DNA from: a virus
IMG/VR virus record: IMGVR_UViG_3300029681_000010
Direction: 5' to 3' (one strand)
Length of the DNA stretch: 42,262 bases
The notes beneath the pieces are model-generated. The model saw nothing but the letters and a program-made list of their open reading frames with translations, searched no databases and was not told where the DNA came from. Shown piece after piece: positions 18,848 through 42,262 of this stretch. Positions within the stretch are counted from its first letter, which is position 1, and every line of letters begins with the position of its first letter. A program made the position numbers and the translations under genes.

Positions 18848-19010
18848 GAGGAGCGGTGGGCTATAACCGCCCCGTTGCGCTTATCGTATCATGTGCGCCC
18901 TTGATATCGCAACTCAGTCTGCTGGTATGCGCACGCAAAAGCTTACTCCCCACATCTTGGCACAGATGCCAAACTATGGGGAGGCAAAAAGGAGATGTAC
19001 TGTAATCCAA

Positions 19011-19418
19011 ATGGACAGTTTGCAGGATCTGTGCCGTAAGGCTCGGCACGACAAAGGGCTGACCAACGCAGACATTGCAGAGCAATCCGGCATCCCGATC
19101 TCAACAGTCAGCAACTTTTTTACGGCGGGATCAAAGGCTCCGTCCGTTTACACGGCTGGCCCTATTTGCGCCGTACTCGGCGTATCGATCAACCAATTTT
19201 TCGGCATCAACCCGCAGGATGAGCCAATTCCGGACTCAGAGCGCAAGCTGCTGCTCCAGCAGATCGCGTTTGGCAACGAGCGCTGTGCCATACTGGAGCG
19301 GTCAATCGCCACGAAAAAGAGGATCATCTTGGCTTTGTTTGCGATTGTGCTCACGGTCCTAATATACGGCGTAACGCTCGATGTACTCTGCGGGAGCATC
19401 GGATTTATCAGGAGGTAA
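19011..19418 (+). CDS. Membrane-anchored XRE-family HTH protein
   Basis: HTH segment LQDLCRKARHDKGLTNADIAEQSGIPISTVSNFF and C-terminal TM segment IILALFAIVLTVLIYGVTLDVL. Ends 4 nt before the integrase ATG. The start is uncertain (19011 or 18966; the ORF track gives 18891). Confidence 0.6.
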   Translation: MDSLQDLCRKARHDKGLTNADIAEQSGIPISTVSNFFTAGSKAPSVYTAGPICAVLGVSINQFFGINPQDEPIPDSERKLLLQQIAFGNERCAILERSIATKKRIILALFAIVLTVLIYGVTLDVLCGSIGFIRR

Positions 19419-19422
19419 CACC

Positions 19423-26300: not shown

Positions 26301-29300
26301 CAAAGCCGGATCGATAACAAAGTTCGGATCATTGGAGAGGATCGAGTCGTACGCCTCGCGCAGTCTGATCGCATCCTGCGTGCGCTTGGTGGGTGTCCCG
26401 TTGTTCCCGCTCCGCAGCCTGCCGTTTTCGTCGTAGCTTCTGGCGCTCTCCATATTGATGCTACGCAAGAGTGCGGCAACGGGCATCCGCAGGCTCTCCG
26501 GGATGTGTTGCTTATCCGTTGGGCGGAGCAACTTCCGAGAGAGCGTTTCGGTGTGCCGCGAGATCTTGGCTCGGATCTCTCTGGCCTTTCGCCTTTCCGC
26601 TCCGGCCTTCGTTCGCTCGGCATAAGCTGTGCGCATCTGCTTGATCTTCTCGTCGCGACCAGCCCGCGTCTTGCTGAGCAGATCCTTCAGGTGTGCGATC
26701 TCCTGCTCCTTCCGGTCTGCGTAGGTAGGTCTTGTCTGCCGGACATCGTCGCTGATCATGCCCTCAATCAGCGCATTGCCAAGTGCCTTTATCGCAATGT
26801 CGCGGTACTCATCATAAGGATTCGACCAAATGCTGTCGATATCCTCCAACACCTCGCCCATGCGCGTAAGCTGATCCGCCGGATGCACGATGTTCTCCGG
26901 GAAATAGCCGCCGCCAAACAGTTCTGTCAGCTCGTGATATGCCACGTCAACAGGGAGGCCGCCGTCCTTTGCAAACTTAATGTCACGGTGTTCCTTCTTC
27001 CATGCCAAAAAATCCGGGATGGATCCGTCATCCGTATACGCCAGCTTGACAGACTTGAGATGTTTTTGGATCTCCAGCAAGTCCTCGCCGCCCTCCTCAA
27101 GCACACGGGAATTCTGGATGATCTTTTCTGCCACATACTCTGCATAAGCGTGGAGATCTGTGTCAGGGACATCCTGCGATAGAAGAGCCTTGCCGATGTT
27201 CTCCATATCCGTCTTGATCTCGCTGTACTTCGTCGAGCTGTCGAAATCACTGATAAGCCGATTGCCGAGTTTCTTCAGATCTCCCTCGCGGAAGCTCGGC
27301 ATAGAGGGCTTGACTTCCGCTTTCCACCGTGCCACCTGCCGCTCAAGCGATTTCACGCGCGTCTTGAGCCGGTCGCGCTCCTTCTTGATGTCGCGCATTT
27401 CCGAATCGATCTGCGTCTGAGACTTGAGCTGAAATCTCGCGTTGTCCACACTGTTTACCGCATTCAACCTACCTGTTTCGTCTCCCGCAGGATACTCGAT
27501 AACGCGAACGCCAGCATCCGATAAAGACTGGCGAATTTCCGCACTGGAATTATCCGGAATTACTGCCGCAAGCACTTCATTAAACCCTACGGCTCTTTGC
27601 GGTTTCGCTTCGAAGTAGCCCGTCGGAAGTTCAGCCGCCGCTCGGAACACCTCGCGGATTTCGCGGGCGGTGCTTTCGCTGATGGAATACCCCTCCTGCG
27701 AGAACGCCCGTCGGATGGCTGCTTCTGTCTGCTTACCCTGCGCGGCCTGCATCATCACGTCGCCGATGATCTGCATCTCATCGAACTGGTTGTCCGAGTG
27801 CGCCTTGTTCTCGCGCATGACCGCCCGCGTGGCCTGCTCGATGCGCTTTTCCACTGCGTCCACGTCGGCCTTGTACTGCTCCGTGTCCACATTGCCGAGC
27901 CTGCCGCTCGCGGCCTTCACCGCGTCGATGCTCTGGAAGTCCTCCGTGCTGACCGCCTGCATGGCCTTCGCCGACGCGCCGAACGTCTGCCCGCCGCGCT
28001 CTGCCTGCGTCTCGGTCATGGCGCGCACGATGTTCTCCAGCGTGTACCCCCAGTGCAGCTGTGAAAAGCTCCGCCGGTTGCCGCTCCGGTCGAAGCGCTC
28101 CGAACCGTTGTAAATGCCCGGCTCGCCCAGCACGCCCTCCAGCTGCGGCAGCAGCCATGCCTTCACGGCCTCAGCGCTCGCCGCTTCATGGAGCTTGTCG
28201 CTGGTCGCCCACCGGTCGATCTCGCTCGTCGTCGCGCCCTGATCCTGATAGTATTCCCACGCGTTTCGGACGAAATTCTCCACCGTGTATGTGTGGACAT
28301 TGTTCTCCATGAAGTAGTTGATCCGCTTCTCCTTCTGCTCCGGTTTCCGGTCGAGGAATCTGCGGTGCTGCTCTTCGTAGCTGTCGCGGATGATCTGCCG
28401 CACCGTATCCTCGATCTCCCGCACCGGCTGATAGTCGCCCGTCTCCATGCTGGCTTCGATGCTGCCCAGCTCCTGCACGCCGATTTTCTGCACCAGCTTC
28501 GCCAGTGCGTCATTGCCGTATCGGTTGAACTCCTTTGCCTGCATGACCGGCTCCAGCGTTTTCCCATGATCGGCCAGATAGGCCGCGCGGATGCTGTCAT
28601 CCCGCGCGAGCTTGTCCGCCAGCTCCGGCGCGCTCATACTGCTCTCTTCGACAACGCCTGCGCGCTGCAATGCGCTGTCATTGCGGAATACGCCGCCCGC
28701 GACCTTCTCGCTCAGCCTCGCGAGTCGTTTTTCCACGGCGCGCATTCGGTCGTAGTTCACTGGATATTCCACCGCCGGGGCCGTCGGCGTATACGCGTCG
28801 CCGCCGTAGATCTTGTTCCGGCTGTCCGTCTGCGGGTCGATGCTCTCGCGTCCGAACACGATGGAGATCGGCCCGTACATGCTGTGTCCCTGCGCCGCCT
28901 TGACGACCGCGATGCTCGGCATCGGCAGTCCGCCCAACTTCATCGCATCCCGCAGGTTCTGTTCCGTCAGGTTGTGGACGGCCACGAGATCCTTTGTCTG
29001 TTCTACCGGTGCTCGCAGGGAGAATTTTTCTTTTACTCCCCGCTGATCCTGTGCGCCTGCTCCAGAACTTCCTCGTCCGTTACCGTCTCCTTTGACAGTA
29101 GATACTCGACCATATCCATCTGCTGAACTTCCTTCTTCAGAAGCAAACACACTACCATAGCTTTTCCTTTGCTTATCTCGAAGTGTTTTAAACACCCGAT
29201 TAAGAGTTTCTGCGCCTCTGTTAAAACCATAATCGAACTCCTTCCTGGCTGCCATAAGCGTCTGATGGTCAGATAATGCGGCTTTACCCCCAGAAGCATA

Positions 29301-32084
29301 CAGCGGCGTAGCTTCCGTACCGTCTCCGATCCCATACAACGCGAACACCTGTACGCCTTTTTCATCAGCATACAGCCATTTCGTTGATTCGTCAAGATAC
29401 TGTTCGGAACTTTCAATCTCTTCCGTCATCCGCCGGTTCAGAAGATTCCATTCCGAGCGGTTGAGATCCGGCCGCCAGTATTTCTTGCGGATCTGCATTT
29501 TCGAGGTGCCATCGGCGTTTGTTTCCGCTTCATCGCTTGTATCGGCGACCGTCTCTGCCGCCTTGTCATACGCCGTCTGCCAAAGGTCTGCGATCTTCTG
29601 CAGCTCCGCGAAGTTTTTGCCGTAAGCCTCCTGCGCTGCCTTATTGCGCTTGGATGCAACAAGGCCCTTGACCTTGGAGATAAACTCCTTCAGCCGGTCA
29701 AGGAGGGTCTTCGCCGCCGTTCGGTTTTTTGCCGCGAACCGCTCAAAGAGGTCAGCATCATTGAGCATCTCTGCTGTGAAATCCGCCGCGATCTCGTCCA
29801 TGGCCTCTTCCTGCGTCAGCGTCACGCCAGCCTCGCGGCTTGCGTCGCGGTAGCGCTCTACCATATGCGCCGCCGTGTCATCCCCCAGCTCGTTCGCGCG
29901 GTATGCCATCACCGCGTCGCGATACGCGTGGTATTCCGTGGGCGCGGCATCCTGCATCCGGTGCGTCACCTCATGCGCCGCGACAAAGGTGAGCGGGTTG
30001 TCCGCGTCCGCCGCAAGCTGGATCGTGTTTGTTTTACTGACGTACTTGCCGTTCGCCGCGCCGCCCTGTACCTGTGGGACGATCTCAATCCTTACGCCCA
30101 TGTCGCTTGCCAAAGCCCCCAGTACGCGTGCCGTTCCGGCGTCTTTGTTGGCAAGATTCCGGCTGTAATCGTTGTCAGCAAGCCCGGCATCACCGGAGCG
30201 CGTAACCAGTTTCACCCCGGCCTTTTCCCGCGCAAGGCTGCTCGCCGCGTCCGCAAGCCCCGCCTGATATGCCGCCGTCTGTACGGATGGGGGGATATAC
30301 TTTGCCGCGTCGCTCTTCACGTCGGTCAGCGCTTTCCCGCTCAGCCCCGCCTGATACATCGAGGTAAAGCCCGTGCGGAGGCGCGGGTTGCTCCTCACGG
30401 CCTGATTCTGCTGTACCTGCGTCCACGCGGCGCTGCCGTTTTCACCGAGTCCGGTGTCGGAGCGGAAACTCTGAAGCCCGTCTGCCGCGCCCTGATTCCA
30501 CGCAGCGGTGCGCTGCGCGTCCGTCAGATCGTCCGCAAACGTCCCACGTTTCTCGGTTACGACACCGGCGCGGCCATCCTCATACGCCTCCTGCATCCCC
30601 AGCAAATAGCGGCTTACATCTCCCCCGGCATAGGAGTCGACAAAGACGTTCGCCGCCCCGGCATTGGCCGCGCGGTTAATTGCGCCCTCATAAAGGTCTG
30701 CGGTATTCCGATCCGCAAACGTTACCTTGTCAGGGGAGACGATGTCGCCGGTTTCCATCTCGATCTGCCCGCCTTTTACGATGGACTTAATCGCAGACTC
30801 ACTGCCGCCGACCGTGGTCTTCCCGTCCTCCTGTGTTTGATACGTCCCCTTTACACCGGAGCGGTCTCTCACCATCTGCTGCGCCTGTTCATAGCGCTTG
30901 CTCTGCTTCTCGATCTGCTTGTTATAGACGCTGTCTGCGGCTTTCCCAGCCGCCATCTGTGCGCCGGAAAGAATGCCTCCGACGGCAAACCCTTCCGCAA
31001 ACTCCTGTGCGGATGTCACGGGGTTAAAGATCGCGCGGTCGTCCGAAAGTGACGCGATAGGATTGTCTGCGCCGTACACAACGTTCTGCATTGTGCGCCC
31101 GACAGGCCCTTGCCAGATTTCCTCCATGCCCTCCTCTGCGGCGCTGCGCAGGAGATTCTTCACGCTGAATCCCTTCGGAACGTTTTGGATACCGCCGCCA
31201 ATCTCAATCACCGAGTTGAGCAGACTTGTGCCGATGGCGTAGTTCATGGCCTCGGACGTGCTTGCTCCGTCGGACAGGGCTTCCTGATAATCCGACCCGA
31301 CCTCGGACGCAAACGCCGTCCAGTAATTTTTAGACGTCAGCGTGTCGCGGAAGCCCTTGCCAAGCGTACTGAGGATGCCGGAGCTTTCGACAACGGATGC
31401 CCCAAGATTTGCAAGTGCCTCTGTCGACGTTGCCACGCCGTTGACAATGGGTGCGACGGCTGCCACTCCGGCAGTCATTGCCATCGGAATCGCGCCGCCA
31501 ACGCCGTATGCAATGTCACCGCCATAAGATGCCGCTTTCTTCGCGGCCTTCCCGGCGATGGTGGAGTCGTTGATCTTGGAAACCTCCTCCTCGCGCTCCG
31601 CGTCAAGGTATGCCTTATTTTGCTCGATACCCACAAGACCGTTCTCGCCGAGGAATTTCCAGTCAGGCCGTCCGTGGTACAGCGCGTTAAAAAGCCCGCT
31701 TCCCTTGGTGTTCGCCCCCTGAAAGATCGTGTCTATTACAGACGTCACGGCGTCCTCGGCCATCGCTCCCGTAGCCGCAGAGATGCTTGCCGCCCCAGCC
31801 AGAAGCGTTTTGCCGAGGTTTTCAAAATACTTCCAGCCGTTAAACTTGCCCTTGCTCTCCTGCCGCTCCTTCGCGGGGTCGATCCGCTGCGACGGGAGGC
31901 TGACGGTGGGCTGCGCCGCTTCGCGCTCTTTTCGCGCCTGGATCCGCTGAGACAAAAGCTCCTGCGCAAGAGCGGCCTGTCCGCTCATGCTCTGCGTGCT
32001 GGTTTGCGTCGCCGCAGACTGCGGATCCTCGCGCTTCTTCTTACGCTGCTGCAGCAGCTCCACCGCCAGATCGTTGTTGGTCAT
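23361..32084 (-). CDS. Giant multidomain virion/ejection-type protein (about 2,907 aa) with zincin HExxH motif; polyvalent-protein-like
   Basis: Uninterrupted 8.7-kb ORF. The start is set at MTNNDLAV (ATG 32084, RBS GGGAGG). HEVTH lies at nt 29961-29975. Residues about 110-400 contain Gly/Ala-rich hydrophobic segments. The EF-hand-like loop DTDGDGKIEKKQ is at nt 23472-23507. The remainder is unassigned. Confidence 0.8.
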   Translation of the reverse strand: MTNNDLAVELLQQRKKKREDPQSAATQTSTQSMSGQAALAQELLSQRIQARKEREAAQPTVSLPSQRIDPAKERQESKGKFNGWKYFENLGKTLLAGAASISAATGAMAEDAVTSVIDTIFQGANTKGSGLFNALYHGRPDWKFLGENGLVGIEQNKAYLDAEREEEVSKINDSTIAGKAAKKAASYGGDIAYGVGGAIPMAMTAGVAAVAPIVNGVATSTEALANLGASVVESSGILSTLGKGFRDTLTSKNYWTAFASEVGSDYQEALSDGASTSEAMNYAIGTSLLNSVIEIGGGIQNVPKGFSVKNLLRSAAEEGMEEIWQGPVGRTMQNVVYGADNPIASLSDDRAIFNPVTSAQEFAEGFAVGGILSGAQMAAGKAADSVYNKQIEKQSKRYEQAQQMVRDRSGVKGTYQTQEDGKTTVGGSESAIKSIVKGGQIEMETGDIVSPDKVTFADRNTADLYEGAINRAANAGAANVFVDSYAGGDVSRYLLGMQEAYEDGRAGVVTEKRGTFADDLTDAQRTAAWNQGAADGLQSFRSDTGLGENGSAAWTQVQQNQAVRSNPRLRTGFTSMYQAGLSGKALTDVKSDAAKYIPPSVQTAAYQAGLADAASSLAREKAGVKLVTRSGDAGLADNDYSRNLANKDAGTARVLGALASDMGVRIEIVPQVQGGAANGKYVSKTNTIQLAADADNPLTFVAAHEVTHRMQDAAPTEYHAYRDAVMAYRANELGDDTAAHMVERYRDASREAGVTLTQEEAMDEIAADFTAEMLNDADLFERFAAKNRTAAKTLLDRLKEFISKVKGLVASKRNKAAQEAYGKNFAELQKIADLWQTAYDKAAETVADTSDEAETNADGTSKMQIRKKYWRPDLNRSEWNLLNRRMTEEIESSEQYLDESTKWLYADEKGVQVFALYGIGDGTEATPLYASGGKAALSDHQTLMAARKEFDYGFNRGAETLNRVFKTLRDKQRKSYGSVFASEEGSSADGYGRVSTVKGDGNGRGSSGAGAQDQRGVKEKFSLRAPVEQTKDLVAVHNLTEQNLRDAMKLGGLPMPSIAVVKAAQGHSMYGPISIVFGRESIDPQTDSRNKIYGGDAYTPTAPAVEYPVNYDRMRAVEKRLARLSEKVAGGVFRNDSALQRAGVVEESSMSAPELADKLARDDSIRAAYLADHGKTLEPVMQAKEFNRYGNDALAKLVQKIGVQELGSIEASMETGDYQPVREIEDTVRQIIRDSYEEQHRRFLDRKPEQKEKRINYFMENNVHTYTVENFVRNAWEYYQDQGATTSEIDRWATSDKLHEAASAEAVKAWLLPQLEGVLGEPGIYNGSERFDRSGNRRSFSQLHWGYTLENIVRAMTETQAERGGQTFGASAKAMQAVSTEDFQSIDAVKAASGRLGNVDTEQYKADVDAVEKRIEQATRAVMRENKAHSDNQFDEMQIIGDVMMQAAQGKQTEAAIRRAFSQEGYSISESTAREIREVFRAAAELPTGYFEAKPQRAVGFNEVLAAVIPDNSSAEIRQSLSDAGVRVIEYPAGDETGRLNAVNSVDNARFQLKSQTQIDSEMRDIKKERDRLKTRVKSLERQVARWKAEVKPSMPSFREGDLKKLGNRLISDFDSSTKYSEIKTDMENIGKALLSQDVPDTDLHAYAEYVAEKIIQNSRVLEEGGEDLLEIQKHLKSVKLAYTDDGSIPDFLAWKKEHRDIKFAKDGGLPVDVAYHELTELFGGGYFPENIVHPADQLTRMGEVLEDIDSIWSNPYDEYRDIAIKALGNALIEGMISDDVRQTRPTYADRKEQEIAHLKDLLSKTRAGRDEKIKQMRTAYAERTKAGAERRKAREIRAKISRHTETLSRKLLRPTDKQHIPESLRMPVAALLRSINMESARSYDENGRLRSGNNGTPTKRTQDAIRLREAYDSILSNDPNFVIDPALFGGDGTSGFIDQLVQLGNQRIDEMNTAQLNVIWKAIKGIETTITSYDKALASGKYMFISQWANDLRSGVSSRKRTNKKAALSLYDPRTFFNAYGDAGLDVFRALRNAEDTQNRRVAEVAKLTEKFMSREVYKQRNERHTFTTEGGQTITLTNDQIMNLYNLANRGKHSMQHLSVGGVIQPYIKRDGKLPAIERGTKSIPLTASDVAQITDVLTDEQIKVAKGLQKIASTMLAKWGNESSMAVYGYNKFTEEHYWPIKSAREAIVQNAERGENMPREIRNMGSAKALNENASNALDLGGVFDVFTKNASDMITYSTMLEPMEDINRLFNYRYRDSAGNLTGKNVKNVLTDVYGEQALKYWRNLMSDVQNGIAHDDEPITRMIEKLVGRTKAASVGMNARVVLQQPTAFFRAAAIIDPSDMAKGLVKAPTKGNGWKKAKQYAGIAAIKDSSGFDQAGQYTIMKGILNGADQTFMDKLSDASSAAAAKADAVTWGKIWNACEYTVQKEGRYEVGSEEFYTRTAEVFSDVIDQSQVVDGILQRTQIMRSGNGLTKQATAFMGEPMKSLNMLLRAYDAWRYETNPSKKSAALKQFARTSIALLVTDGVNALVQSLVDAARKDDKDKDYWGRYFEVLTGVTGEDDTVVSVLLGSNLWDNIDPVGRIPFAKDIKSMLQGYTVSRMDADAVSDFISAAQLFTKAAQGDGQKTPLYAFKQLLVTGSKIFGVSVGNIGRDTWAVARSIAQETGSYWAMYQMEQMIYRVAPDAKNTSRYYSILYHALQDDKAAYDRIYADLISKGYTDKQIKTGMKNAIKNAGGSDMLSQLEDVGFSREDAETVIKQQEFKQSYGFSYDDLADEYADGNISRREVIRALQNVGGLSAEDAELKATVYDWKNAGVSDATNSIVKAYQSYGSEAGFDKKTFAEAYKDLNAVKGEDTDGDGKIEKKQFVLEAINKMNISTAQKDALYRMKGYGEKQLADAPWH

Positions 32085-32104
32085 AGTTGCCTCCCTCGCT
32101 CGCG

Positions 32105-33133
32105 TTACTTCTTCTTGTGGAACGTGATTGTCTTCTTGCTGTTGTCCCACGTTGCGGTCGCAGTTCCGTTCTGGAGCATCTTAATCAGCTCAGTTTCACC
32201 GTATCGGCTTCCGCCTTCAAGCTTGATCCATCCGTTACCGGATCGATTTGTGATGGTATACTCGTTGATCGGCCTATAGCCGCTCTCATATGCCGCCTGA
32301 GTCTGAGCGCCCCAAATGCCGTCCTGCGTGAGACCAGCCGCCATCTGGATCTGCTTGATCTGATCGGACGAGTACCCGTGGGTGTCGTAGCTCTTGCTGG
32401 ATCTGCGAGAGCTGGACGAACCACTGCGGCTAGAACTGCTTGCCGCCGCCTTCTGAGCCGCAAGCTGAGCCTGCTCCATTGCCATCTGCTGGTTAAACTG
32501 CCTGACGTTCTCGTCATACTGTTTTTGCCACTGCGCGTCTGAGATCTGATCCCTGTAGTCCTGATAGGCGTAGCTTTTTGCGTCGCCGTATCGGCTGTAA
32601 TCAAGCTGCCGCTCGGCATCGTACCGATTCGCGGCGTAATCGCGCTGGTTTTGCCAGTCGCTCATCTTATCCCGATGCTCTCCGTACTCCTTCGAGTACC
32701 TGTCCGCGAGGAGGGAGTACTGCGTCTTGAGATCGTCGCCCTCCGCGTTATAACGATCCAGAGCCATCTGATACAGCTCCGGCACAACGTCGTTGAGGCT
32801 CTGCAGATACGCGTTATACTGCTGCTGCCCGGCGCTTTGGCTGTATGTCGAGCCATACCCGCCGGTAAGCGCCGCCGCCTGTCCCATCGTATCCTGCATG
32901 GCCTGCTTGCCCTGCTGGACGTATCGATCCTTGTACTGCTGATAGAGCGCGTCGCCGTTCAGGTCGTACTTAAATTTTTCGCGGTTCTGCAGTTTGCTGA
33001 GCGCGTCCTGCATCTGCTGGCCATACGTCCCGCCGTTCCACTCGCCCGGCTTCCGTGCGTCCGCCTGCTGGAGCTGATTGTACAGATCCCTGACGCGCTC
33101 GCTCTCCTCATAGTCTTTGTAGCTAAACGCCAC
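32105..33133 (-). CDS. Q/Y/D-rich protein with Ser-rich linker and partial peptidoglycan-binding-like C-terminal motif
   Basis: 342 aa. The C-terminal IKQIQMAAGLTQDGIWGAQTQAAYESGY resembles the second half of a PG_binding_1 repeat. Lies between the endolysin and the giant gene. Confidence 0.6.
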   Translation of the reverse strand: MAFSYKDYEESERVRDLYNQLQQADARKPGEWNGGTYGQQMQDALSKLQNREKFKYDLNGDALYQQYKDRYVQQGKQAMQDTMGQAAALTGGYGSTYSQSAGQQQYNAYLQSLNDVVPELYQMALDRYNAEGDDLKTQYSLLADRYSKEYGEHRDKMSDWQNQRDYAANRYDAERQLDYSRYGDAKSYAYQDYRDQISDAQWQKQYDENVRQFNQQMAMEQAQLAAQKAAASSSSRSGSSSSRRSSKSYDTHGYSSDQIKQIQMAAGLTQDGIWGAQTQAAYESGYRPINEYTITNRSGNGWIKLEGGSRYGETELIKMLQNGTATATWDNSKKTITFHKKK

Positions 33134-33163: not shown

Positions 33164-33871
33164 TTACTTCTTGAGCAGCGCTCCCCAAGTATCCTTACCG
33201 CAGATGCCGTCCGCCGTCAGGCCGTTTGCGCGCTGACAAGCCTTGATTGCCGCCACGGTCGCCGCGCCGCAGATACCGTCCGCGCCGTAGCTGCCGCAAT
33301 TGTAGCCCTGCGCGATGAGCGCGCCCTGCATGCTGCGCACCGCGTTGCCGCGGTCGCCGTTGCCGATCATCTGTGTTGCTACCATGATAATGTCCTCCTC
33401 GGTCGTGTTTTTGTTCTGGGCCTCCGGCGTCCCGGAGACGATAGCCTCAAACGGGAAATACTTGCCGGGGCAGTCCGTGGTAGACCCGGCGACGTCCTTG
33501 TGGCCGATCACCTTAGTGATGCCCCAGCGCCGCTTGATATCGGCCACCAGCGCCTGTCCAGCGGCCAGCTGCGCGGCGGGCATGGTCGGTTCCACCTGAT
33601 AATTACCCTCGAAGCACACGCCGATGCTATGGCTGTTAGCCCCGTAAGCGTGCGCGCCTACGGTATCTTCGGGGCGACCACGATAGATCGTGCCGTCCTT
33701 GCGCACCAGATAGTGGTAGCCGATACCCGCCCAGCCGTTGCCGACGTGAGAGCTGTGTACGCCATTCGGCGTGCAAGTGGTCGTGCCGGAGTGGTGCAGG
33801 ATCAGCAGATCCGTCGAGTTTCGCTTGCTGAGCGGCATTGCCCATTTGTAGGTTTTTTCGACGATGTTCAT
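33164..33871 (-). CDS. Endolysin: N-acetylmuramoyl-L-alanine amidase (Amidase_2/PGRP) plus PG_binding_1 domain
   Basis: Start MNIVEK (ATG 33871, RBS GAGGAGG; the holin stop is at 33873-33875). Motifs LILHHSGT, GIGYHYLV, VGAHAYGANSHSIGVCFEGNY and CPGKYFP. The C-terminus reads GNAVRSMQGALIAQGY...DGICGKDTWGAL. Confidence 0.9.
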   Translation of the reverse strand: MNIVEKTYKWAMPLSKRNSTDLLILHHSGTTTCTPNGVHSSHVGNGWAGIGYHYLVRKDGTIYRGRPEDTVGAHAYGANSHSIGVCFEGNYQVEPTMPAAQLAAGQALVADIKRRWGITKVIGHKDVAGSTTDCPGKYFPFEAIVSGTPEAQNKNTTEEDIIMVATQMIGNGDRGNAVRSMQGALIAQGYNCGSYGADGICGAATVAAIKACQRANGLTADGICGKDTWGALLKK

Positions 33872-33872
33872 C

Positions 33873-34346
33873 TTATTCCTCCTCGTTGCCCGCCGGAATC
33901 TTGTCCTCCACACTTACCTTCAGGCGCTTGATCAGGCTCTGCAAAAATCCCGGCACAGGCGCACCCAGCGCGGCCACATTCTCCAAAATACTAATCAGCT
34001 CATTAATGACCAGCCAAATCACCACGATCGAAGCGATCAGGAAATCCAGTTTCCAATCCAGCCCCATCTGGTCAGCACCATACCGCACCAGCCAGTCCAG
34101 CACGCAGGCCACCGCGACGATCACCAGATAGCCGACCTTTTTCAGGATGCCTCCGATGCCGACGCGGCTGCTCAGCTCTCCGGCCTGCCACGCCTTGGCC
34201 ATGCCGGTGATGTAGTCCAGCACCATCACCGCGACGAGGATGATCGCCGGGATGATGAGCTGCGTGCCGTAGGATGCCAGCGCCCCCAGCGCTGCCGCAA
34301 GCACGGCCTTGATTGCGTTTTCTTTCATGATGTGTACCCCTTTCAT
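33873..34346 (-). CDS. Holin (toxin-secretion/phage-lysis holin family, TcdE-like)
   Basis: 157 aa with 3-4 TM segments. LDYITGMAKAW...ILKKVGYL is characteristic. Two candidate starts, ATG 34346 and ATG 34328; the latter has the better RBS, AAAGGGG. Confidence 0.8.
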   Translation of the reverse strand: MKGVHIMKENAIKAVLAAALGALASYGTQLIIPAIILVAVMVLDYITGMAKAWQAGELSSRVGIGGILKKVGYLVIVAVACVLDWLVRYGADQMGLDWKLDFLIASIVVIWLVINELISILENVAALGAPVPGFLQSLIKRLKVSVEDKIPAGNEEE

Positions 34347-34411
34347 ATTATGTCGTAAACGCTTTCGTGCTTAGGTTGCCGCTATTGTCCACGAAGAGCG
34401 TATACAGCGTA

Positions 34412-36340
34412 CTATTGGATTTCCTCATTGATCGTCACCACAACAGCGGTCGTGTCCGTGCAGATAACGGATACCCTGATATCGTTTTCGGATTCTCTGT
34501 TTACGATTTTAATAAGTCCGTTTCCTTCGTCCGAACAGAGCATCCCATTAAAGTGGGCGCCGTTGTATAGGTAAGTCGCCGAATAAAACGTACCGTCTGC
34601 ATTGTACTTCACGATTGCGCTGTTCCCATCGGATGCCGCCGGTATACCCACTCCCTTAATACGGAGCACATCTCCAACTGCCAGATGGATCAGGCTTGCC
34701 GCGTCCATATTCGCGCCGATTGTTGCCCAGCCTGTCCGCGCTTTGTTCACACCGCTCGACGTACTCAGCCGCGTGTCCGTAGAGATTCCGACGGTATTGA
34801 TGATGTTCGTGATCTCAGCCGCACAGGTAATCACGATGTTGCCCGTTACCTTGGAAATTGTGATCGTGCTGCCGGAAACCGTAGATGCGGAAATGTTTGT
34901 GCCGCCCATCATGACGGTGATCGCACCCAGCTTCTTGAAAGTTCCCGTCGGAGAGAGCACCGTGGTATAGGCCGCGCCCTCGGCGATGGTATTCGCTGTG
35001 TTGGACGATGCACAGTTGGTAAGATTGCGCGTGATGTTGTAAGTCACAGACGGTGCAGAGGCCGCCGCAGTGATCGTGACCGATCCAGTCACCTTGGCGA
35101 TGTTGATTGCACCGCTGCCAGCCGAGTAAGACGTGGCCGTGATATCCACGCCTCCCATTTTGACTACTACCGACGTGATCGTCTTTCCGCTTTCCGCCGC
35201 GATGTTCGCTGTGTACGCTTCGCCGTAATCCACCTGATATGCGGAGTTGCTGATCGTGCAGCCCGTGAGATTTTTGGTGATCGTCTGATACCAGTGCAGC
35301 GTCTCCGGCGTTCCGTTGATCATTGCCGCTCGGTAAGCGTTGATATCGGCCATTGACATTCCGCACGTTCCCACGGCAAAATGCATGCACTTATCGCGGA
35401 ACGTATCGCCGGAAACGGCGTTGATCGCATTGATAAGCCTCTTCCAGTCTGATTCATTCCGTCGGCGGGCAAGTGCATCTGTCCCGGAGCCGGAATAAAA
35501 TGTAGTCAGCTCATAATCCTTGTCGATGTCGGACTGGCTCATGCCGAGCAAGCCCTCCAGCACACACGCGAGCGTGCCGGTACGGTCCGCACCTGCGGTG
35601 CAGTGGAAATACACCGGCTCCCGATGCGTCACTGCGTCGATCACGCAGCGAAGATAGAGCTGCCACGTTTCAACCGGCGTCAGCGCGTAGGACGCTGCCT
35701 TGTCGGCAATCGTAAACCACACATCGCCGCCAAGCGGAGATTCCGTTGCAACGTCACCGTCGGACGGGTCGCGCCCCTCTTTGCCTCTAAGGTCAATTTC
35801 ATGCTGCACGCCAAGCTGGCCGACCAGTACCGCCCGATCTGCGGCAGAGATACGCCCGCCCCGAATCAGTAGGCCGTATTTTACCGTGCCGCCGTCGCAG
35901 GCCCATCCGCCAAGGTCGCGCACGTTCCACGCTTCTGCAGAGTTTTCTCGCGTGCGAATCCACCGCAGTGCATCCTGCGGTTTGAGCGTGCCCGCTTTCC
36001 CGCCGGAGGCAAACGGCGTGAGCACATTCGGTACTTCGTTGTAGTGCGTCACCCCACCAGCCGTCTGCCCAATGGGCTTGTAATTGCTCACAACATCTGT
36101 TGCGGGCGCATAGTTGGCAATCTGTGACGTGCTGTAATCGCTCGGGTCATAGGTCACGTTGGCAAGATAATTCCGTACCGCCTCCGGGCACTGATGCCAC
36201 TCAACTGCTTCGCTTCCGGAGAGTGCTCGCACAGCAGCGCCCATCTCGGCAACTTTGTACTTCGTGGCCGTGCCGTTTTTCTCGCGGATAGCTGCCGCAA
36301 TGTCCTGCACGGAGGACTCTTCATACAGCTTTTTCGCCAT
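34412..36340 (-). CDS. Tail fibre/appendage protein with internal CX5R phosphatase domain and two tandem Ig-like repeats
   Basis: 642 aa. WNVRDLGG and FHCTAGADRTG (nt 35576-35605) are the hallmark motifs of the Y_phosphatase3-type family. Two 76-aa repeats cover residues 352-427 and 433-508. ATGA-type overlap with the upstream fibre gene. Confidence 0.75.
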   Translation of the reverse strand: MAKKLYEESSVQDIAAAIREKNGTATKYKVAEMGAAVRALSGSEAVEWHQCPEAVRNYLANVTYDPSDYSTSQIANYAPATDVVSNYKPIGQTAGGVTHYNEVPNVLTPFASGGKAGTLKPQDALRWIRTRENSAEAWNVRDLGGWACDGGTVKYGLLIRGGRISAADRAVLVGQLGVQHEIDLRGKEGRDPSDGDVATESPLGGDVWFTIADKAASYALTPVETWQLYLRCVIDAVTHREPVYFHCTAGADRTGTLACVLEGLLGMSQSDIDKDYELTTFYSGSGTDALARRRNESDWKRLINAINAVSGDTFRDKCMHFAVGTCGMSMADINAYRAAMINGTPETLHWYQTITKNLTGCTISNSAYQVDYGEAYTANIAAESGKTITSVVVKMGGVDITATSYSAGSGAINIAKVTGSVTITAAASAPSVTYNITRNLTNCASSNTANTIAEGAAYTTVLSPTGTFKKLGAITVMMGGTNISASTVSGSTITISKVTGNIVITCAAEITNIINTVGISTDTRLSTSSGVNKARTGWATIGANMDAASLIHLAVGDVLRIKGVGIPAASDGNSAIVKYNADGTFYSATYLYNGAHFNGMLCSDEGNGLIKIVNRESENDIRVSVICTDTTAVVVTINEEIQ

Positions 36341-37092
36341 CAGTAACTCACCTCCGTACCGCCGGGAAGCGCCGCAATGACGCTGTTGACAATCTCCTGT
36401 TTATCAGCTGCCGTCCAGTAGTCCGTGCCTCTGACAGGGGTCTTGCCATCAGCGCCCTTTTCTCCCTGCGCTCCATCTTTCCCGTTTGCGCCGTCCGCGC
36501 CTTTCGGGCCGTCAAACGCGCCGGATGCCTTGGCCTGCGCAAGCGCCGCGTCCGTCGCAGCCTGCAGATCGGTCTGGGCGACAGCCCCCACTTCCGCTGC
36601 TGTGTAGGTAGGTTTCTTTTCGGCCTTCGCCCACTCCGGGACGGTCGGGTCGGTTTCTTCGACCGGGTGCTCGGTCAGATACTCGGCGACGGCTGTCTTG
36701 ATTGCTTCCGGATCTGCGCCGCCCAGTCCCTTGATAAGATCCATTAGTTGGTCGTACACGTCGGGCGTGGGATCGGCAGGCGCGCCAGCCGCAGACCGGA
36801 CGGACGGCAGCGCGCGCAGGATTGCCACGCGCGACGTGCGGAGGTTGCCAGCATACAAGCCGATCTGTACCACACCCGGCACGGTGCAAACGGGCAGCTC
36901 GATCGTGTCGCCCGCAAACACCTTATCCGTGAACGTGCCGTCCATGTAGATTGTTCGCATGGTTTTGGTATCGTAAGCGCTCCACTCTTCGTCCAGCGTC
37001 CAATGCACCGTGTAGTCGCTGTTGTCGCATACGATGGATTGCGTATCAGACACCGCGACCTTGTGCGCAACTGTGATATTGATATCAGGCAT
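36340..37092 (-). CDS. Tail fibre protein with short collagen-like (G-X-Y)8 segment
   Basis: 250 aa. GPKGADGANGKDGAQGEKGADGKT at nt 36439-36510. Confidence 0.65.
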   Translation of the reverse strand: MPDINITVAHKVAVSDTQSIVCDNSDYTVHWTLDEEWSAYDTKTMRTIYMDGTFTDKVFAGDTIELPVCTVPGVVQIGLYAGNLRTSRVAILRALPSVRSAAGAPADPTPDVYDQLMDLIKGLGGADPEAIKTAVAEYLTEHPVEETDPTVPEWAKAEKKPTYTAAEVGAVAQTDLQAATDAALAQAKASGAFDGPKGADGANGKDGAQGEKGADGKTPVRGTDYWTAADKQEIVNSVIAALPGGTEVSY

Positions 37093-37104: not shown

Positions 37105-38937
37105 TCATGCTGTGCGTTTCCACGTGTACACAGCCAAATACGGCGGCATGTTGTTGTGCGCCTTGCCCCCGCAGTTGCTGCTTTGTGGCCCCGTGTACTG
37201 GTTCGGCTGTCCGTTGACATCGTACAGCCGGATAGCGTCCGTACCAATGACAGTGCTCTGGCCAGTGTACTGATAGCTCATCTTGATCTCAGGGATTTCG
37301 TCAGCTGTCAGCGTTACCTCGGATTCACCGCCAATCGTACCGGGACGATAGATTGTGCCAGCTGCCAGCAGAAACACGTTAGTAATGGCTTCCCACGTTC
37401 CGCCAAACAAATCAGCCGGATTGGTCGATTTTGTGGACTGATAGATGCTTCCTACCGGATAGATCCAGTCGAGCAGCATCCGTCCGCCCACACGCAGCGA
37501 CGCCGCCTGCACCTCTCCCTGAAATTCCGCGTCCCACGCGCACTCAAGCCCGGCCTTCTCGCTGTACTTGCCAAAGGCCACTCCGTTGCCGCCCTCGCGC
37601 AAATGCATCGTAACAGCCTGCGTCGGGATAACCGCCGTTACGCTGGCGACGTTACCGAGCTTGTCGACTACCTCGATTTTGCCCTCATAGCTGGCCGTCG
37701 TAAGGATATCCACACTACCGGTGACGAGAGCCGCCTTGCCGCTTGCCATCGCAAGCCCCGCGCTCCATGAGCCTCCCACGGCTCTCCAATAGCCTTTGAG
37801 CGTGTAGGTGTTCTCTCCGCCGCAGTCGGAGTGCTTGACCGTGGCCACGCCCGCGATGTGCAGCCCCGTGTCCGCCGGGAGCATCGCGTCATCCGATCGG
37901 TAGATCTGTACGCCCGTCAGCACCGGAGCGGCGTAGGAGTATAGGTTGACCGTCAGCGTTTCCTCGGCATACATCCCGCGCGAATCCGTCACGCGGCAGA
38001 TGATCTGTGCGCTTTTCCCGTACAGCACCCCCGTCTTATACGGCGCACTCTCCGCGCTCACGCCTTCGCAGGTGATCCTGTATCCGGCGATGCTTGCCCC
38101 GTACTTGGTCGATATCTTGTCCGCTGCAAATGCGATCTGCGCCCGCGAGAATCCGCTGATAAACCCCTTAAGGCTTGCGGCCTTGCCGCCGCTGTTGTCT
38201 GCCGCCGCCGCTGCCCAGCCGGAGGCCACCGTGGGCGCCGCATCCGCCGGAACGCGCAGCGTGAAGCTTACGCTCTGCTCGTCGCCGATCTGCTCCGTCA
38301 GGCTGCTGTCGCTCCATGTCTTGAGGTAAACCGTACACGTCCCGCTTGCGGCGTTTGGGATCCTGCTTGCAAGCGCCTTGCGCGGGGTCAGCGCGAACCA
38401 GTTGTACGCCGTCTCCCCGTCGAAGTCTCCCGCGTAGCCGTCTCCCGCGAACGCATAGCGCACCGTGTGGACAAATCCGGTCTTTTTGCTGTTGGTGTAG
38501 ATGATGATCTCCTCGCCCATGGCGATGGAACTCTTGTTGAGCGTCGGCACGCTGGCGCGCGGGATCGTGTCGAGCGTCACCGTCGCCGAGATCGAGGTCG
38601 ATGAGAGCGTCGTGCCGCTGATCCGTCCATCTGCCGAAATCGTCACGTCCCGACTGCCGTCCGCATTGTGGTACACCCGCACCGTCGCAGAGACCGCCAT
38701 CGTGTCGGAATTATAGGAGATCTCGATGTGACGGCTCCCCGCCGTGCGCTGTCCGTCGATCGTAATGCCGCCGGACCACGTGCCGCTCGTCGTATAGCCG
38801 CTGTTGCTGCGGCTGTAGTACAGCGTCGCGGTTACGTCGCTGTAGTTGCCGTCCTGCGACTGTGCCGCCGACCAGTAGATGTCCGGCCTGATATACTGGT
38901 TGCCGGTCGATCCGGAAAAATTGCCGGAGAGCGCCAT
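37105..38937 (-). CDS. Receptor-binding / host-specificity protein (DUF859-like N-terminus, tail-collar-like C-terminus)
   Basis: 610 aa. N-terminal SGNFSGSTGNQYIRPDIYWSAAQSQDGNYSDVTATLYY...TLDTIPR. C-terminal YPVGSIYQS...LFGGTWEAI...GGESEVTLTADEIP...HNNMPPYLAVYTWKRTA. Confidence 0.7.
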   Translation of the reverse strand: MALSGNFSGSTGNQYIRPDIYWSAAQSQDGNYSDVTATLYYSRSNSGYTTSGTWSGGITIDGQRTAGSRHIEISYNSDTMAVSATVRVYHNADGSRDVTISADGRISGTTLSSTSISATVTLDTIPRASVPTLNKSSIAMGEEIIIYTNSKKTGFVHTVRYAFAGDGYAGDFDGETAYNWFALTPRKALASRIPNAASGTCTVYLKTWSDSSLTEQIGDEQSVSFTLRVPADAAPTVASGWAAAAADNSGGKAASLKGFISGFSRAQIAFAADKISTKYGASIAGYRITCEGVSAESAPYKTGVLYGKSAQIICRVTDSRGMYAEETLTVNLYSYAAPVLTGVQIYRSDDAMLPADTGLHIAGVATVKHSDCGGENTYTLKGYWRAVGGSWSAGLAMASGKAALVTGSVDILTTASYEGKIEVVDKLGNVASVTAVIPTQAVTMHLREGGNGVAFGKYSEKAGLECAWDAEFQGEVQAASLRVGGRMLLDWIYPVGSIYQSTKSTNPADLFGGTWEAITNVFLLAAGTIYRPGTIGGESEVTLTADEIPEIKMSYQYTGQSTVIGTDAIRLYDVNGQPNQYTGPQSSNCGGKAHNNMPPYLAVYTWKRTA

Positions 38938-38938
38938 G

Positions 38939-39721
38939 TTAACCTCCGATCCAGCGGAACGTAATCCCGCTTGTAAAATTTACGTCCCACTTGCCTGCGC
39001 CCGTGATCCGCTCCAGTTCAACGTGCGTGACATGCAGTGCACCGTTGGAGAAATACGCGATCTCCGTACCCTCGACGTAAAACGACAGCTTCTTGCTCGT
39101 CCAGACCGACATATTGTGACTGGTGTCGATCACGTCGTATGTCTTGCCGCCCACACTTTGCGTGCCGGTCGTCTGGATGTTTTGCCCGATGGCGATGCCG
39201 ATGACCGGGACGGTGTCCTCATAGCCGACGATGCCCTGCCGGATGTATCCGGTGGTCTCCGTCCTGTATGCCAGCAAGCCCTCGATATCTCCGGCCTGTC
39301 CGTCGATCCGTCCCTCTAACTCGCTGACGTACTGGATGCTCTGCGTCACATCCTCTGCCGTTGCCGTAAACTTTGCGTCGACTTGCTCCTTGTACTGTCC
39401 AAACTCGCTCTTGGCGAGGTAGCTGCTCTGCAGCTCGGCCTCGACGCGCTGCACCTCGCTGCGCACGGTATCTGCCGTCTTGATGATCAGGCTTTTGAGG
39501 GCGTTGGCGCTCGCTCCGATCTCCTGCCGCGTCTGATCCTGTGCCGCCTTTTGCGCTCCGGATCCCAAAGCGGTCTTTGCCGCATCCGTCAGACTGTCTG
39601 CCTCGATCGCGTTGAGAGATTCGTTAAGCTGCCTCGCCAGCGCATAAAGGTATCGCCGTACGCTGAGCAGCTGCTCGGTCTGCCCGCCTTGGATCGTCGG
39701 CGGGGTCGGGATAACTACCAT
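38939..39721 (-). CDS. Coiled-coil tail protein (needle/fibre-like)
   Basis: 260 aa. A long helical N-terminal half and a beta-rich C-terminal half. Overlaps the upstream gene by 7 nt. Confidence 0.55.
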   Translation of the reverse strand: MVVIPTPPTIQGGQTEQLLSVRRYLYALARQLNESLNAIEADSLTDAAKTALGSGAQKAAQDQTRQEIGASANALKSLIIKTADTVRSEVQRVEAELQSSYLAKSEFGQYKEQVDAKFTATAEDVTQSIQYVSELEGRIDGQAGDIEGLLAYRTETTGYIRQGIVGYEDTVPVIGIAIGQNIQTTGTQSVGGKTYDVIDTSHNMSVWTSKKLSFYVEGTEIAYFSNGALHVTHVELERITGAGKWDVNFTSGITFRWIGG

Positions 39722-41472
39722 CCGAGATCACTCCCCAGCTCAAGAATTTTCGCGATGGAAAACACCCTCACGACGCCCTTGCCGGAGAGCTTAAGCCGCA
39801 TATGGTCGCACCGCCGGGGGATCACGGGCACCGTAAACGTCCCATGGCCCTTTCGCCGCACTGTCCCCGCCTCGCGCCAAATGCCGTCGGAGTCATACAT
39901 GCAGTATAGCCGCAGCTCCCCGCCCTGCTCAATCTGGAGCCGGATGTTATAGCGGCTCAGGTATTTTTTGTCGGGGTAGTCGTACCCGATCACGCCCGTC
40001 TCCGCAGACCACTCGGGAGCGTCCTCCGGCGTGCCCTGCGTGCCGTTGACGCACATCATCCACTTGGTGTCCGCATCGATGTAAAACAGGTCATCGTCCA
40101 TCCGTGCGAATACAAGCGCGTGTGTATTGTCCTCCCGATGCCACATTGCCCGGTTTGCGTCGTACACAAAGAGATGCCATGCCGAGCCATCGTACATGCT
40201 GATGTAATACTTGCCGCACACGCACCCCGCAGTCGCCTTGCTGTATAGCACATCGCCAAACGCCGCCCCAATCGACGTGGGGAAACTCCCGTCGTACGCG
40301 CATACATCCGTGCGGGACTTGTAAAGAAGCATCTCGTTGACTACGCACAGGCTGCGCCAGCTGCCGTTTTGCACGCCTCGCGCCGCCGTCTCAACGACCT
40401 GATGCCCCCCGGAGGATGCGACGGAAATCCGGTGGATCACGTCCTCTTTAAAAAACGTGGGATATCCCTGATAGTTGATCGCACCCGTCCACGCGCCGTC
40501 CGAACCAACAGATGCCGCCCAAGCGTCCGTCGACACGCCGGCATAGACTCGCCAGTTCTTGAAATCGCCGAGCTTGCAGCAGTACAACTCATTAACGGTC
40601 TTGCCGTCCACCATGCCGTACTTGCATCCCCAGATGCGGTTTTGCGCCTCGCAGACATAGTCCATGTCCGGCACGCTGCGTGCCGCCTTAACCGGGCCGC
40701 TCTCCTGCGTGTAAGTCAGGTCGATCAGCCCGATGACCACGATCCAGTCATCGCCCTTGCTCTGCACGACCTTTGTGCCGTTTAGGTCCTCATACTGCGC
40801 CTTGACGGCCTCGCTGTCTCCCCCGTAGGCGATGCCGCTGATCTCCAGCCCGTCGCCTTCGGCAAAGGCCTTGCCGATCCCGTCTGCCGAGATCTTGGTG
40901 TAGACCGTCGCGACACCCATCCACATGCTCTGCGACGCGGAGTACGTCATCAGCTGGTGTGGGGTCTGCGTCGTATCGATCCAATACTCGCCGCCTGTCG
41001 GATTCTCCGGCTGCGTAAGCGGGATATCTCCCATCGCTTTGCCATCCATTGTGCTCAGCGAGTATACCACGTTGCCGGTGCTCTCCCACGACGCCTCAAG
41101 GCTCCCGCAGTCCGTCACATCCTTGGTGTTGAGATACACCTTGTCCGGCCAGATCACAAGGTATGCCCCCATGCTGACCATCTGCTTGTCGCCGTCGCTC
41201 AGCGTCAGCCCGGTGATCTCCTTCCCGTTGTAGTACAGCTTGCCCCCGTCGACCACGGCCATCGCGTCCTTTGCCAGCATCCCGCCCGGAGCGGTCAGCT
41301 GCTGCACCTTGCCGCGTGCGGGTCTGCTCATCAGAAGCGGATACCCGCTCGACGTGAGGTTTGTCATGTCGTAAAACTCGCCGTCGCTGATCCTGCGGTT
41401 GTGGTTGTACCCTCCAAACACGGACAGCATCTCGCGGCTCTGGCTCGTCTCGGTGAGCGTCGGATTATACAT
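39715..41472 (-). CDS. Large tail structural protein (nozzle/tail-tubular candidate)
   Basis: 585 aa, beta-rich. Directly follows the connector-like gene. The function is inferred only from position. Confidence 0.5.
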   Translation of the reverse strand: MYNPTLTETSQSREMLSVFGGYNHNRRISDGEFYDMTNLTSSGYPLLMSRPARGKVQQLTAPGGMLAKDAMAVVDGGKLYYNGKEITGLTLSDGDKQMVSMGAYLVIWPDKVYLNTKDVTDCGSLEASWESTGNVVYSLSTMDGKAMGDIPLTQPENPTGGEYWIDTTQTPHQLMTYSASQSMWMGVATVYTKISADGIGKAFAEGDGLEISGIAYGGDSEAVKAQYEDLNGTKVVQSKGDDWIVVIGLIDLTYTQESGPVKAARSVPDMDYVCEAQNRIWGCKYGMVDGKTVNELYCCKLGDFKNWRVYAGVSTDAWAASVGSDGAWTGAINYQGYPTFFKEDVIHRISVASSGGHQVVETAARGVQNGSWRSLCVVNEMLLYKSRTDVCAYDGSFPTSIGAAFGDVLYSKATAGCVCGKYYISMYDGSAWHLFVYDANRAMWHREDNTHALVFARMDDDLFYIDADTKWMMCVNGTQGTPEDAPEWSAETGVIGYDYPDKKYLSRYNIRLQIEQGGELRLYCMYDSDGIWREAGTVRRKGHGTFTVPVIPRRCDHMRLKLSGKGVVRVFSIAKILELGSDLGW

Positions 41473-42167: not shown

Positions 42168-42262
42168 GCGGGGGAGGGGTTGCCTCCCCCGCCGTTACTC
42201 AGTTTGCCTCGACCGACGCGCTCCACGCATCGGACACGCTCTCCACGCGCACCATATTCTGC
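42168..42262. repeat. Direct terminal repeat copy B (circular assembly overlap; duplicates the capsid gene 3' end)
   Basis: Identical to 1-95. Confidence 0.95.

Follow-up and report, generated by a model that had tools for sequence, protein, structure and literature searches.

A predicted cysteine phosphatase module in a tail-fibre-like protein of a gut phage

Gene, domain organization and phosphatase fold

The stretch of viral DNA analysed here (42,262 nt; IMG/VR record IMGVR_UViG_3300029681_000010; the whole stretch is referred to as the window) contains on its minus strand, at 34412..36340, an open reading frame (ORF) for a tail-fibre-like protein of 642 amino acids (aa) with a predicted phosphatase. 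A preliminary description, made from the letters of the DNA, had placed a PF13350-type tyrosine-phosphatase-like domain at 35306-35938, i.e., residues 135–345, based on the motifs WNVRDLGG (residues 138–145) and FHCTAGADRTG (residues 245–255) with intact catalytic Cys and Arg. Our analysis confirmed this observation (C247, R253) and partly supported the interpretation that accompanied it, in which a virion-displayed domain hydrolyses phosphate-containing surface polymers or serves as a repurposed binding module.

The first 43 residues (36212..36340; all features of the gene lie on the minus strand) constitute an exchangeable N-terminal leader, delimited by leader swaps among relatives, by its ratio of nonsynonymous to synonymous substitutions (dN/dS) and by an AlphaFold model, in which two helices occupy residues 8–22 and 30–39; we presume that it is the adaptor for virion attachment. 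It is followed by a conserved pre-domain, residues 44–135 (35936..36211; WHQCPEAVRNYL...VTYDPSDY...KPxG...LRWI), the constant companion of the phosphatase, and by the PF13350 (Y_phosphatase3) cysteine-phosphatase catalytic domain, residues 136–350 (35291..35935), assigned with Pfam and Foldseek. In this domain, NVRDLGG (residues 139–145; 35906..35926) aligns to NFRDLGG of PDB entry 8dhi, and the phosphate-binding loop (P-loop) HCTAGADRTG (residues 246–255; 35576..35605) contains the predicted nucleophile C247, the predicted catalytic acid D252, and R253. The protein continues with two immunoglobulin (Ig)-like beta-sandwich repeats, residues 351–431 (35048..35290) and 432–515 (34796..35047), and ends in an all-beta C-terminal head, residues 516–642 (34415..34795), presumed to be the receptor-binding tip. 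The repeats share 42% sequence identity (E 1e-13) and were modelled as beta-sandwiches with a predicted local distance difference test (pLDDT) of 80–90, the first repeat at 80–85, and the head at 82–90; both the repeats and the beta-rich C-terminal domain had been recognised in the preliminary description. The model of residues 351–640 was generated with 18 close homologs, and the same AlphaFold run gave pLDDT < 50 for residues 1–350; in Foldseek, this model returned generic tandem-Ig matches only. The head is the most variable folded domain, with alternative sequence types at residues ~575–625, and its closing motif, ...T(I/V)NE(E/P)I, is common to distant relatives. A signal peptide is absent from the phage version, which would therefore reach the outside only via the virion or lysis.

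Pfam matched residues 136–313 to PF13350 with 89.6 bits (cut-off 22.2; E 4.1e-25), while other cysteine-phosphatase families gave weak matches only, around the P-loop. The single protein, when searched against PDB sequences, matched 8dhi and Mycobacterium tuberculosis PtpB with both motifs aligned. A profile of 86 family members matched 8dhi with E 1.8e-17 and PtpB (1ywf) with E 4.5e-7, with HCTAGKDRTG of 8dhi and HCFAGKDRTG of PtpB aligned to the P-loop. Residues 1–350, modelled by AlphaFold with 86 diverse relatives as input, reached pLDDT 94.2 and a predicted template modelling score (pTM) of 0.88. This model superposed in Foldseek on the C. difficile protein tyrosine phosphatase (PTP) 8dhi/8dhj (target-normalised template modelling score, TM, 0.61–0.64; E 4.7e-8) and on PtpB 1ywf/2oz5 (TM 0.52–0.57), matches to the two having E values of 5e-8 to 1e-6 and a probability of 1.00. 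TpbA, dual-specificity phosphatases, Siw14, PIR1, PTPMT1 and poxvirus phosphatases were also among the structural matches. No right-handed beta-helix or TIM-barrel depolymerase fold was detected in the models, and Pfam gave no glycosidase or lyase match. Profile searches and structural comparison together confirmed the predicted fold of residues 136–350 as that of a PF13350 cysteine phosphatase with Cys, Asp and Arg intact.

Residues ~44–135 (WHQCPE.VRNYL..VTYDP.DY...KP.G...LR.I) accompany the PF13350 domain in every distant relative, and the pairing holds whether the unit is N-terminal, C-terminal (loci L017, L020 and L021, and proteins P0217, P0229 and P0230) or in tandem. By family profile search, the pre-domain has no sequence relative in the PDB. 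As judged from this pairing and from the model, the enzymatic unit is one self-contained module of ~300 residues, 44–350, and not 135–345; the high pTM agrees with one compact unit. The flanking region had been described as a typical fibre N-terminus, which is appropriate for residues 1–43, of fibre type, and not for residues 44–135, which are integral to the phosphatase module. Because the pre-domain belongs to the enzyme module, the previously suggested expression construct of residues 120–350 would probably cut into the folded unit. Tandem units were found in cellular proteins, three in P0128 (990 aa; L090 5094-8066) and two in P0146, each with an intact HCxxGADR loop.

Conservation of the catalytic loop was examined in 149 representatives of clusters at 50% identity or less. 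The pattern HCxxGxD[R/K] was kept in 142 of them (~95%; Arg in 136, Lys in 6), and Cys, Asp and Arg were jointly retained in ~91% of the clusters. HCxxGxDR was present in 20 of the 21 GTDB loci, L025 being the exception. Eight residues, i.e., N139, R141, D142, G144, G145, H246, C247 and G250, showed no variation among 86 sequences, which extend down to 38% identity, and D252 and R253 were conserved in at least 90% of these. D206 was considered as a general acid of the WPD-loop type and was rejected, the residue not being conserved in distant relatives. As no conserved Asp of the WPD-loop type is present, the acid role is assigned to D252 of the P-loop, following PMC3091653. A variant loop with Lys in place of Arg, HCG.GADK, occurs in P0199, P0241, P0252, P0256, P0261 and P0267, including both lipoprotein versions of the unit.

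The same fold, family and NxRDxGG and HCxxGxDR[T]G skeleton are found in 8dhi and in MptpB-type "atypical lipid phosphatases" (M. tuberculosis PtpB, Listeria LipA/Lmo1800), several of which are secreted and which also have the catalytic Asp inside the loop. With respect to the loop diagnostic of the MptpB type, HCXXGKDR[TA]G (Beresford et al. 2010), the Asp at position 6 is present in the 642-aa protein and the Lys at position 5 is not. Catalysis in that family requires the Asp, and the role of the Lys is phosphoinositide binding: Lys-to-Ala mutants of characterised enzymes lose most activity on phosphatidylinositol 3,5-bisphosphate, PI(3,5)P2, and keep ~10% on phosphatidylinositol 3-phosphate, PI(3)P (PMC3091653; PMC6409689). 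Among 145 loops of the clade, position 5 is Ala in 130, Arg in 6 and Lys in 1, and it is Ala251 in the 642-aa protein; the clade thus appears to keep the chemistry and to have dropped one lipid-substrate-binding determinant. Such a Lys-to-Ala change predicts weak phosphoinositide phosphatase activity. Furthermore, the pre-domain of ~90 aa is obligatory here and the proteins are multidomain fibre or wall-anchored proteins, in contrast to the stand-alone MptpB-type enzyme of ~30 kDa. By alignment, the relatives constitute a distinct clade of PF13350 that lacks the Lys and bears the pre-domain.

Mean pairwise identity among 120 close homologs was highest for the phosphatase (0.91), followed by the pre-domain (0.85), the Ig repeats (0.83–0.84), the leader (0.75) and the head (0.70). 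The dN/dS values, calculated according to Nei-Gojobori over 52 distinct coding sequences with dS near saturation (about 1.1), were lowest for the phosphatase (0.08), followed by the pre-domain (0.10), the Ig repeats (0.10–0.15) and the head (0.16), with the highest value for the leader (0.45). At the level of coding sequence, strong purifying selection on the phosphatase domain is shown by these values.

Relatives in phages and in gut bacteria

The exact 642-aa protein recurs across many human-gut metagenomes and was present on 20 public contigs (the longest listed ~42–45 kb), where it is named only "hypothetical protein". Three gut-virome copies in BFVD, A0A8S5QN55, A0A8S5V632 and A0A8S5T7U1, are automatically named "Tyrosine phosphatase family protein"; the first (UniProt; Ackermannviridae sp. 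ctQad106) is 92% identical and essentially the same protein. The database label is thus already known, and for these three entries we found the domain label only, with no tail-fibre assignment or publication. More than 4000 homolog clusters exist at 90% identity. Searched against 1.8 billion representatives at 50% identity, residues 1–350 gave 7198 matches, with 335 clusters below E 1e-30; the best 150 of the 7198 matches were all multidomain proteins of 170–1760 aa. GTDB relatives were found with an alignment as the query (the single-protein query confirmed none), and all came from gut or rumen samples: the best was a Subdoligranulum variabile metagenome-assembled genome at 77% identity, followed by Oscillospiraceae, Ruminococcus, Butyricicoccaceae and other Clostridia at 28–52%, and one small contig was binned as Megasphaera. 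A tblastn search of 50,697 GenBank phage records, with the whole protein, residues 44–350, the N-terminal leader and the C-terminal half as queries, returned only unannotated faecal fragments and 2–3 kb fragments labelled as Listeria phage at 27% identity; no cultured phage carrying the protein was found among these records. The preliminary description had called a phosphatase on a fibre unusual, in accordance with its absence from these records and from our literature searches.

In the window, the phosphatase gene is the last virion gene, just before the holin (33873-34346) and an Amidase_2 + PG_binding_1 endolysin (33164-33913), which together form a lysis cassette at 33164..34346 on the minus strand. 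Directly upstream lies a gene for a 250-aa collagen-like fibre protein (36340..37092, minus strand) with weak collagen and tail-fibre PHROG matches. The ATG of the phosphatase gene overlaps the stop of the collagen-like gene (TGATG), with a GGAGG ribosome-binding site upstream, and from this arrangement the phosphatase gene is predicted to be translationally coupled to the fibre gene. Of 82 loci, 48 have a homolog of the upstream proteins adjoining the fibre gene, and in 47 of 81 related loci the fibre gene is closely followed by homologs of the lysis genes; in the exceptions that were sampled, its neighbours are holin, amidase, tail-collar or head genes. In L063 (12054-13808, plus strand), and also in L062, the gene directly downstream of the fibre gene encodes a fusion of a Phage_Mu_F head protein with an ADP-ribosyltransferase exoenzyme domain (PF03496).

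Relatives that are 78–83% identical over residues 44–641 carry at least three unrelated leaders (~30–47 aa) before the WHQCPE motif. The upstream proteins of two unrelated backbones have only the C-terminal 57 aa in common, at 70% identity, comprising a collagen-like Gly-X-Y run and then ...RGTDYWT..DKQEIVN.V.AALP.GTEVSY. These sequences suggest that the collagen-like and phosphatase genes form a two-gene cassette in which, we infer, the C-terminus of the stalk docks the leader. An identical 639-aa fibre protein, P0057, was found on at least 57 contigs (loci L001-L006 among them) with clearly different phage backbones. In a backbone of the P22-portal type its gene is the last one before the endolysin, and it has the same place in a siphovirus prophage with an HK97-type capsid. 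In the latter it follows a Prophage_tail gene, and the prophage is flanked by host genes, e.g., CotJ and SLH. The identity of P0057 across different backbones is evidence that the fibre cassette was exchanged horizontally very recently. Two relatives carry Phage_fiber_rpt.

The unit is also encoded by cellular genes in Ruminococcus and other Oscillospiraceae, where it is located behind signal peptides, lipoboxes or a pilin-type N-terminus; in P0252 and P0261, the lipobox is followed directly by the WxQCP motif of the unit. Export signals were detected in about 14 of 142 representatives, and phage versions were without any. Fusion partners of the cellular unit include Dockerin_1, LRR_5, SLH, Choline_bind_3, Big_2 and three GDSL/SGNH domains. 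Based on these exported and wall-anchored fusions, residues 44–350 are predicted to be an extracellular module. One contig contains both a prophage fibre copy and a cellular copy with a signal peptide 3.1 kb apart, their units being 48% identical.

Regarding the neighbourhoods of the cellular copies, one Ruminococcus copy is located at the end of a surface-polysaccharide locus that includes a CapF-like gene and genes for a pyruvyl transferase, a flippase, a Polysacc_synt_2 dehydratase and a UDP-GlcNAc 2-epimerase. The gene for the triple-unit protein P0128 is divergent from two Polysacc_deac_1 genes, and another cellular copy neighbours a secreted alkyl sulfatase. The cellular protein of L017 (6077-11125; 1682 aa) consists of three GDSL/SGNH acylhydrolase repeats followed by a C-terminal phosphatase unit; from its domains it looks like a multi-enzyme surface protein for "decoration stripping", and P0217 and P0230 are similar.

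Proposed role and alternative explanations

We propose that the 642-aa protein is a virion-displayed phosphomonoesterase on a distal tail-fibre component, modifying a phosphorylated component of the host envelope. Given the sequence and model evidence, we consider this reading about as likely to be right as wrong; that the protein is part of the virion, is active, acts on such a substrate and contributes to adsorption are all points that we infer. The protein would be the distal component of the tail fibre, with the leader (1–43) docking it to the C-terminus of the upstream collagen-like stalk protein, the two Ig-like spacers and the variable beta-sandwich head (351–642) binding the host surface, and the enzyme module (44–350) sitting between leader and spacers. 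Homology suggests Cys247 as the nucleophile attacking a phosphate monoester, Asp252 as acid/base, and Arg253 together with the loop amides as the groups holding the phosphate. Candidate substrates are glycopolymer decorations, glycolipids and surface proteins, and the module on the virion would be a receptor-modifying or receptor-destroying enzyme, not a backbone depolymerase. As the same module is present on secreted, wall-anchored proteins of bacteria, the phosphorylated substrate is probably a normal component of the envelope. Virion display, which had also been put forward in the preliminary description, is likely in view of the tail-fibre position and the fibre-like modularity: the gene lies at the distal end of the tail module, and a backbone-specific N-terminal adaptor and a variable tip are exchanged between phages.

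Several observations weigh against this proposal. The gene of some relatives adjoins head-morphogenesis genes, not lysis genes, and the 642-aa protein matches no tail-fibre family in PHROG, Pfam or NCBIfam. The loop of L025 (4494-5972) reads HCVAGADG, with the catalytic Arg replaced by Gly, and a few representatives are without a recognisable catalytic loop; the loss of the Arg or of the loop in a few lineages indicates that activity is not universally required. Variants with Arg changed to Gly or Lys could be inactive sublineages or sublineages of altered specificity. The polysaccharide-gene neighbourhoods are single anecdotes. Finally, phosphate in Gram-positive walls is mostly in diesters, which makes a monoester substrate on these hosts hypothetical. 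A broader version of the proposal, in which receptor-destroying cysteine phosphatases form a new class of virion enzyme, borne on the fibres of a very large set of phages from human gut and rumen, and Oscillospiraceae display and remodel an undescribed phosphomonoester receptor, is offered only tentatively, as we think it rather more likely to fail than to hold.

Four alternatives were considered. In the first, the PTP fold is a lectin-like phosphate-binding pocket with little or no turnover, so that the domain itself is the receptor-binding site. Pseudophosphatases and substrate-trapping PTP domains are well known, the domain is located in a receptor-binding protein, and some relatives have replaced the Arg (Gly in L025, Lys in six representatives). 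However, a pure binder would not need a nucleophile plus an acid, which are retained together with the Arg in the large majority of clusters; the dN/dS of the domain is the lowest in the protein; and a separate variable head already supplies specificity. We consider this alternative unlikely, and the earlier suggestion of a repurposed binding module is weakened by the same retention of the loop and the same purifying selection.

A second, somewhat less probable alternative is a non-virion accessory enzyme freed at lysis, acting on the lysing wall, on neighbouring cells, or on gut phytate or host phosphoinositides. The gene abuts the lysis cassette, one cellular copy lies beside the secreted alkyl sulfatase, and secreted enzymes active on phytate or on phosphoinositides are found among the PF13350 relatives (PMC6409689, PMC3091653). 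The translational coupling to the collagen-like fibre gene, the backbone-specific leader swaps and the joint transfer with the C-terminal stretch of the upstream fibre protein argue instead for a virion component, as do the Ig-like spacers and the variable head, which are typical fibre anatomy. In addition, the P-loop of the clade carries the Lys-to-Ala change that sharply lowers phosphoinositide activity in characterised enzymes (PMC3091653).

The third alternative, close to the polymer hydrolysis first suggested, is a depolymerase of phosphodiester-linked wall polymers, such as teichoic acids, phospho-glycan repeat units or phosphorylated capsule, that clears a path to the cell. The known enzymes of the CX5R type act on phosphomonoesters or terminal phosphoanhydrides via a phospho-cysteine intermediate, and we know of none that cleaves the phosphodiester backbone of a polymer. 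This chemistry makes cleavage of a teichoic-acid backbone unlikely, and a monoesterase that removes decorations is more plausible; the suggestion of depolymerisation is thereby weakened. Structural neighbours of known substrate are monoesterases or pyrophosphatases (PtpB, dual-specificity phosphatases, Siw14, PIR1, PTPMT1), and the models contain none of the depolymerase folds looked for. On the other side, related hosts have SLH wall-anchoring, a polysaccharide locus lies beside a cellular copy, and virion enzymes directed at teichoic acid do exist: in Staphylococcus phage 812 (Kayvirus), the central spike of the tail provides a precedent for a phosphate-ester hydrolase fold on a Gram-positive phage tail aimed at wall polymers (PMC13433997). 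The phage 812 domain is a GlpQ/GDPD-like phosphodiesterase barrel, in contrast to the cysteine-based PTP fold described here, which is expected to be a monoesterase. We give this alternative a slim chance.

Lastly, an effector injected with the DNA that dephosphorylates host signalling or defence proteins is very improbable, since the cellular versions of the module are exported and wall-anchored, pointing to an extracellular substrate, and since the build with Ig-like domains and a head is that of a fibre, unlike an internal protein, of which the phage encodes a separate one (39715-41472), despite the facts that phages eject proteins, that poxviruses package dual-specificity phosphatases and appear among the structural matches, and that this phage encodes a giant polyvalent protein.

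The proposed receptor-modifying phosphomonoesterase has functional parallels in several known systems. Receptor-modifying esterases on virions include SGNH-type tailspike deacetylases of O-antigen or capsule, and the haemagglutinin-esterases of influenza C and coronaviruses. The logic would be the same by analogy, an enzyme on the attachment organelle stripping a small receptor decoration and leaving the polymer uncut. The bond differs, acetyl ester versus phosphate ester, and the folds are unrelated; a fusion of the module to three SGNH/GDSL domains does occur in one relative. Viral neuraminidases may serve as a further analogy for a receptor-destroying role. In the glucan phosphatases laforin, SEX4 and LSF2, a dual-specificity-phosphatase fold of the CX5R type is combined with a carbohydrate-binding module (CBM), and the substrate is a phosphomonoester on a polysaccharide, to which the attached glycan-binding domain directs the enzyme. 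These enzymes are intracellular or plastidial and have no detectable sequence relationship to the 642-aa protein, so that the likeness would be one of functional analogy only. Pfam detected neither CBM20/CBM48 nor any other CBM in the 642-aa protein, and laforin and SEX4 were not among the top 50 structural matches.

The enzymes described from phage tails are, to our knowledge, glycosidases, lyases, esterases, peptidoglycan hydrolases and a GlpQ-like phosphodiesterase, and our literature searches found no paper on a phosphatase-bearing tail fibre or a virion-associated cysteine-based phosphatase. A receptor-modifying virion enzyme of this new catalytic class, as predicted from sequence, is one that we have not seen described before. 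If active, it would point to a phosphorylated surface receptor in dominant, poorly studied gut Firmicutes, substrate-trapping C247S or D252A mutants would be a direct handle for finding that receptor, and an enzyme class would be added for engineering phage host range. If the broader version of the proposal is true, abundant Oscillospiraceae (Subdoligranulum, Gemmiger, Ruminococcus-like) bear an undescribed phosphomonoester surface structure that is used as a phage receptor. The feature is widespread, not a curiosity of a single genome, and as such gives a testable prediction on the surface chemistry of gut Firmicutes.

Genome context of the fibre gene

The window ends in an exact terminal direct repeat of 95 bp (1-95 = 42168-42262), which indicates a circular assembly of ~42.2 kb and an apparently complete phage whose virion operon spans the junction. 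On the minus strand, this operon runs from the large terminase (4267-5766) through the portal (2391-4274) and the major head protein (32-1078), then across the junction to the internal virion protein (39715-41472), a 260-aa protein, a DUF859 + Gp10_C tail protein (37105..38937), the collagen-like gene, the phosphatase gene, the holin and the endolysin. The scanned proteins included no recognisable tape-measure or tail-tube component, and the phage may therefore have a short tail. The plus strand encodes a large serine recombinase (19381-20739), a Cro/C1-type helix-turn-helix regulator (18891-19418), an N6/N4 DNA methylase (16174-16974) and a weakly matched Sak-like single-strand annealing protein (11393-12055), which together indicate a temperate lifestyle. 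A diversity-generating retroelement was considered as the cause of the C-terminal variability of the fibre protein and was rejected, because no template repeat of the 3' region of the gene (34381-35400) was found across the whole window; tRNA genes were also absent from the window.

Two further genes follow the lysis cassette on the minus strand. The first, directly after the endolysin (32105-33133), encodes a Gln-rich and Ser-rich protein of 342 aa that matches no PHROG and, close to its C-terminus, only part of PG_binding_1; an accessory role in lysis, or in wall binding, is possible. The second is an ORF of 2929 aa (23361-32150) with a PBECR5 nuclease domain (E 4.5e-69), which is similar to the giant "polyvalent" proteins encoded by phages and conjugative elements. 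Related phages (L001 and L002) have ORFs of 1685 aa and, with LPD3, 2108 aa at this position.

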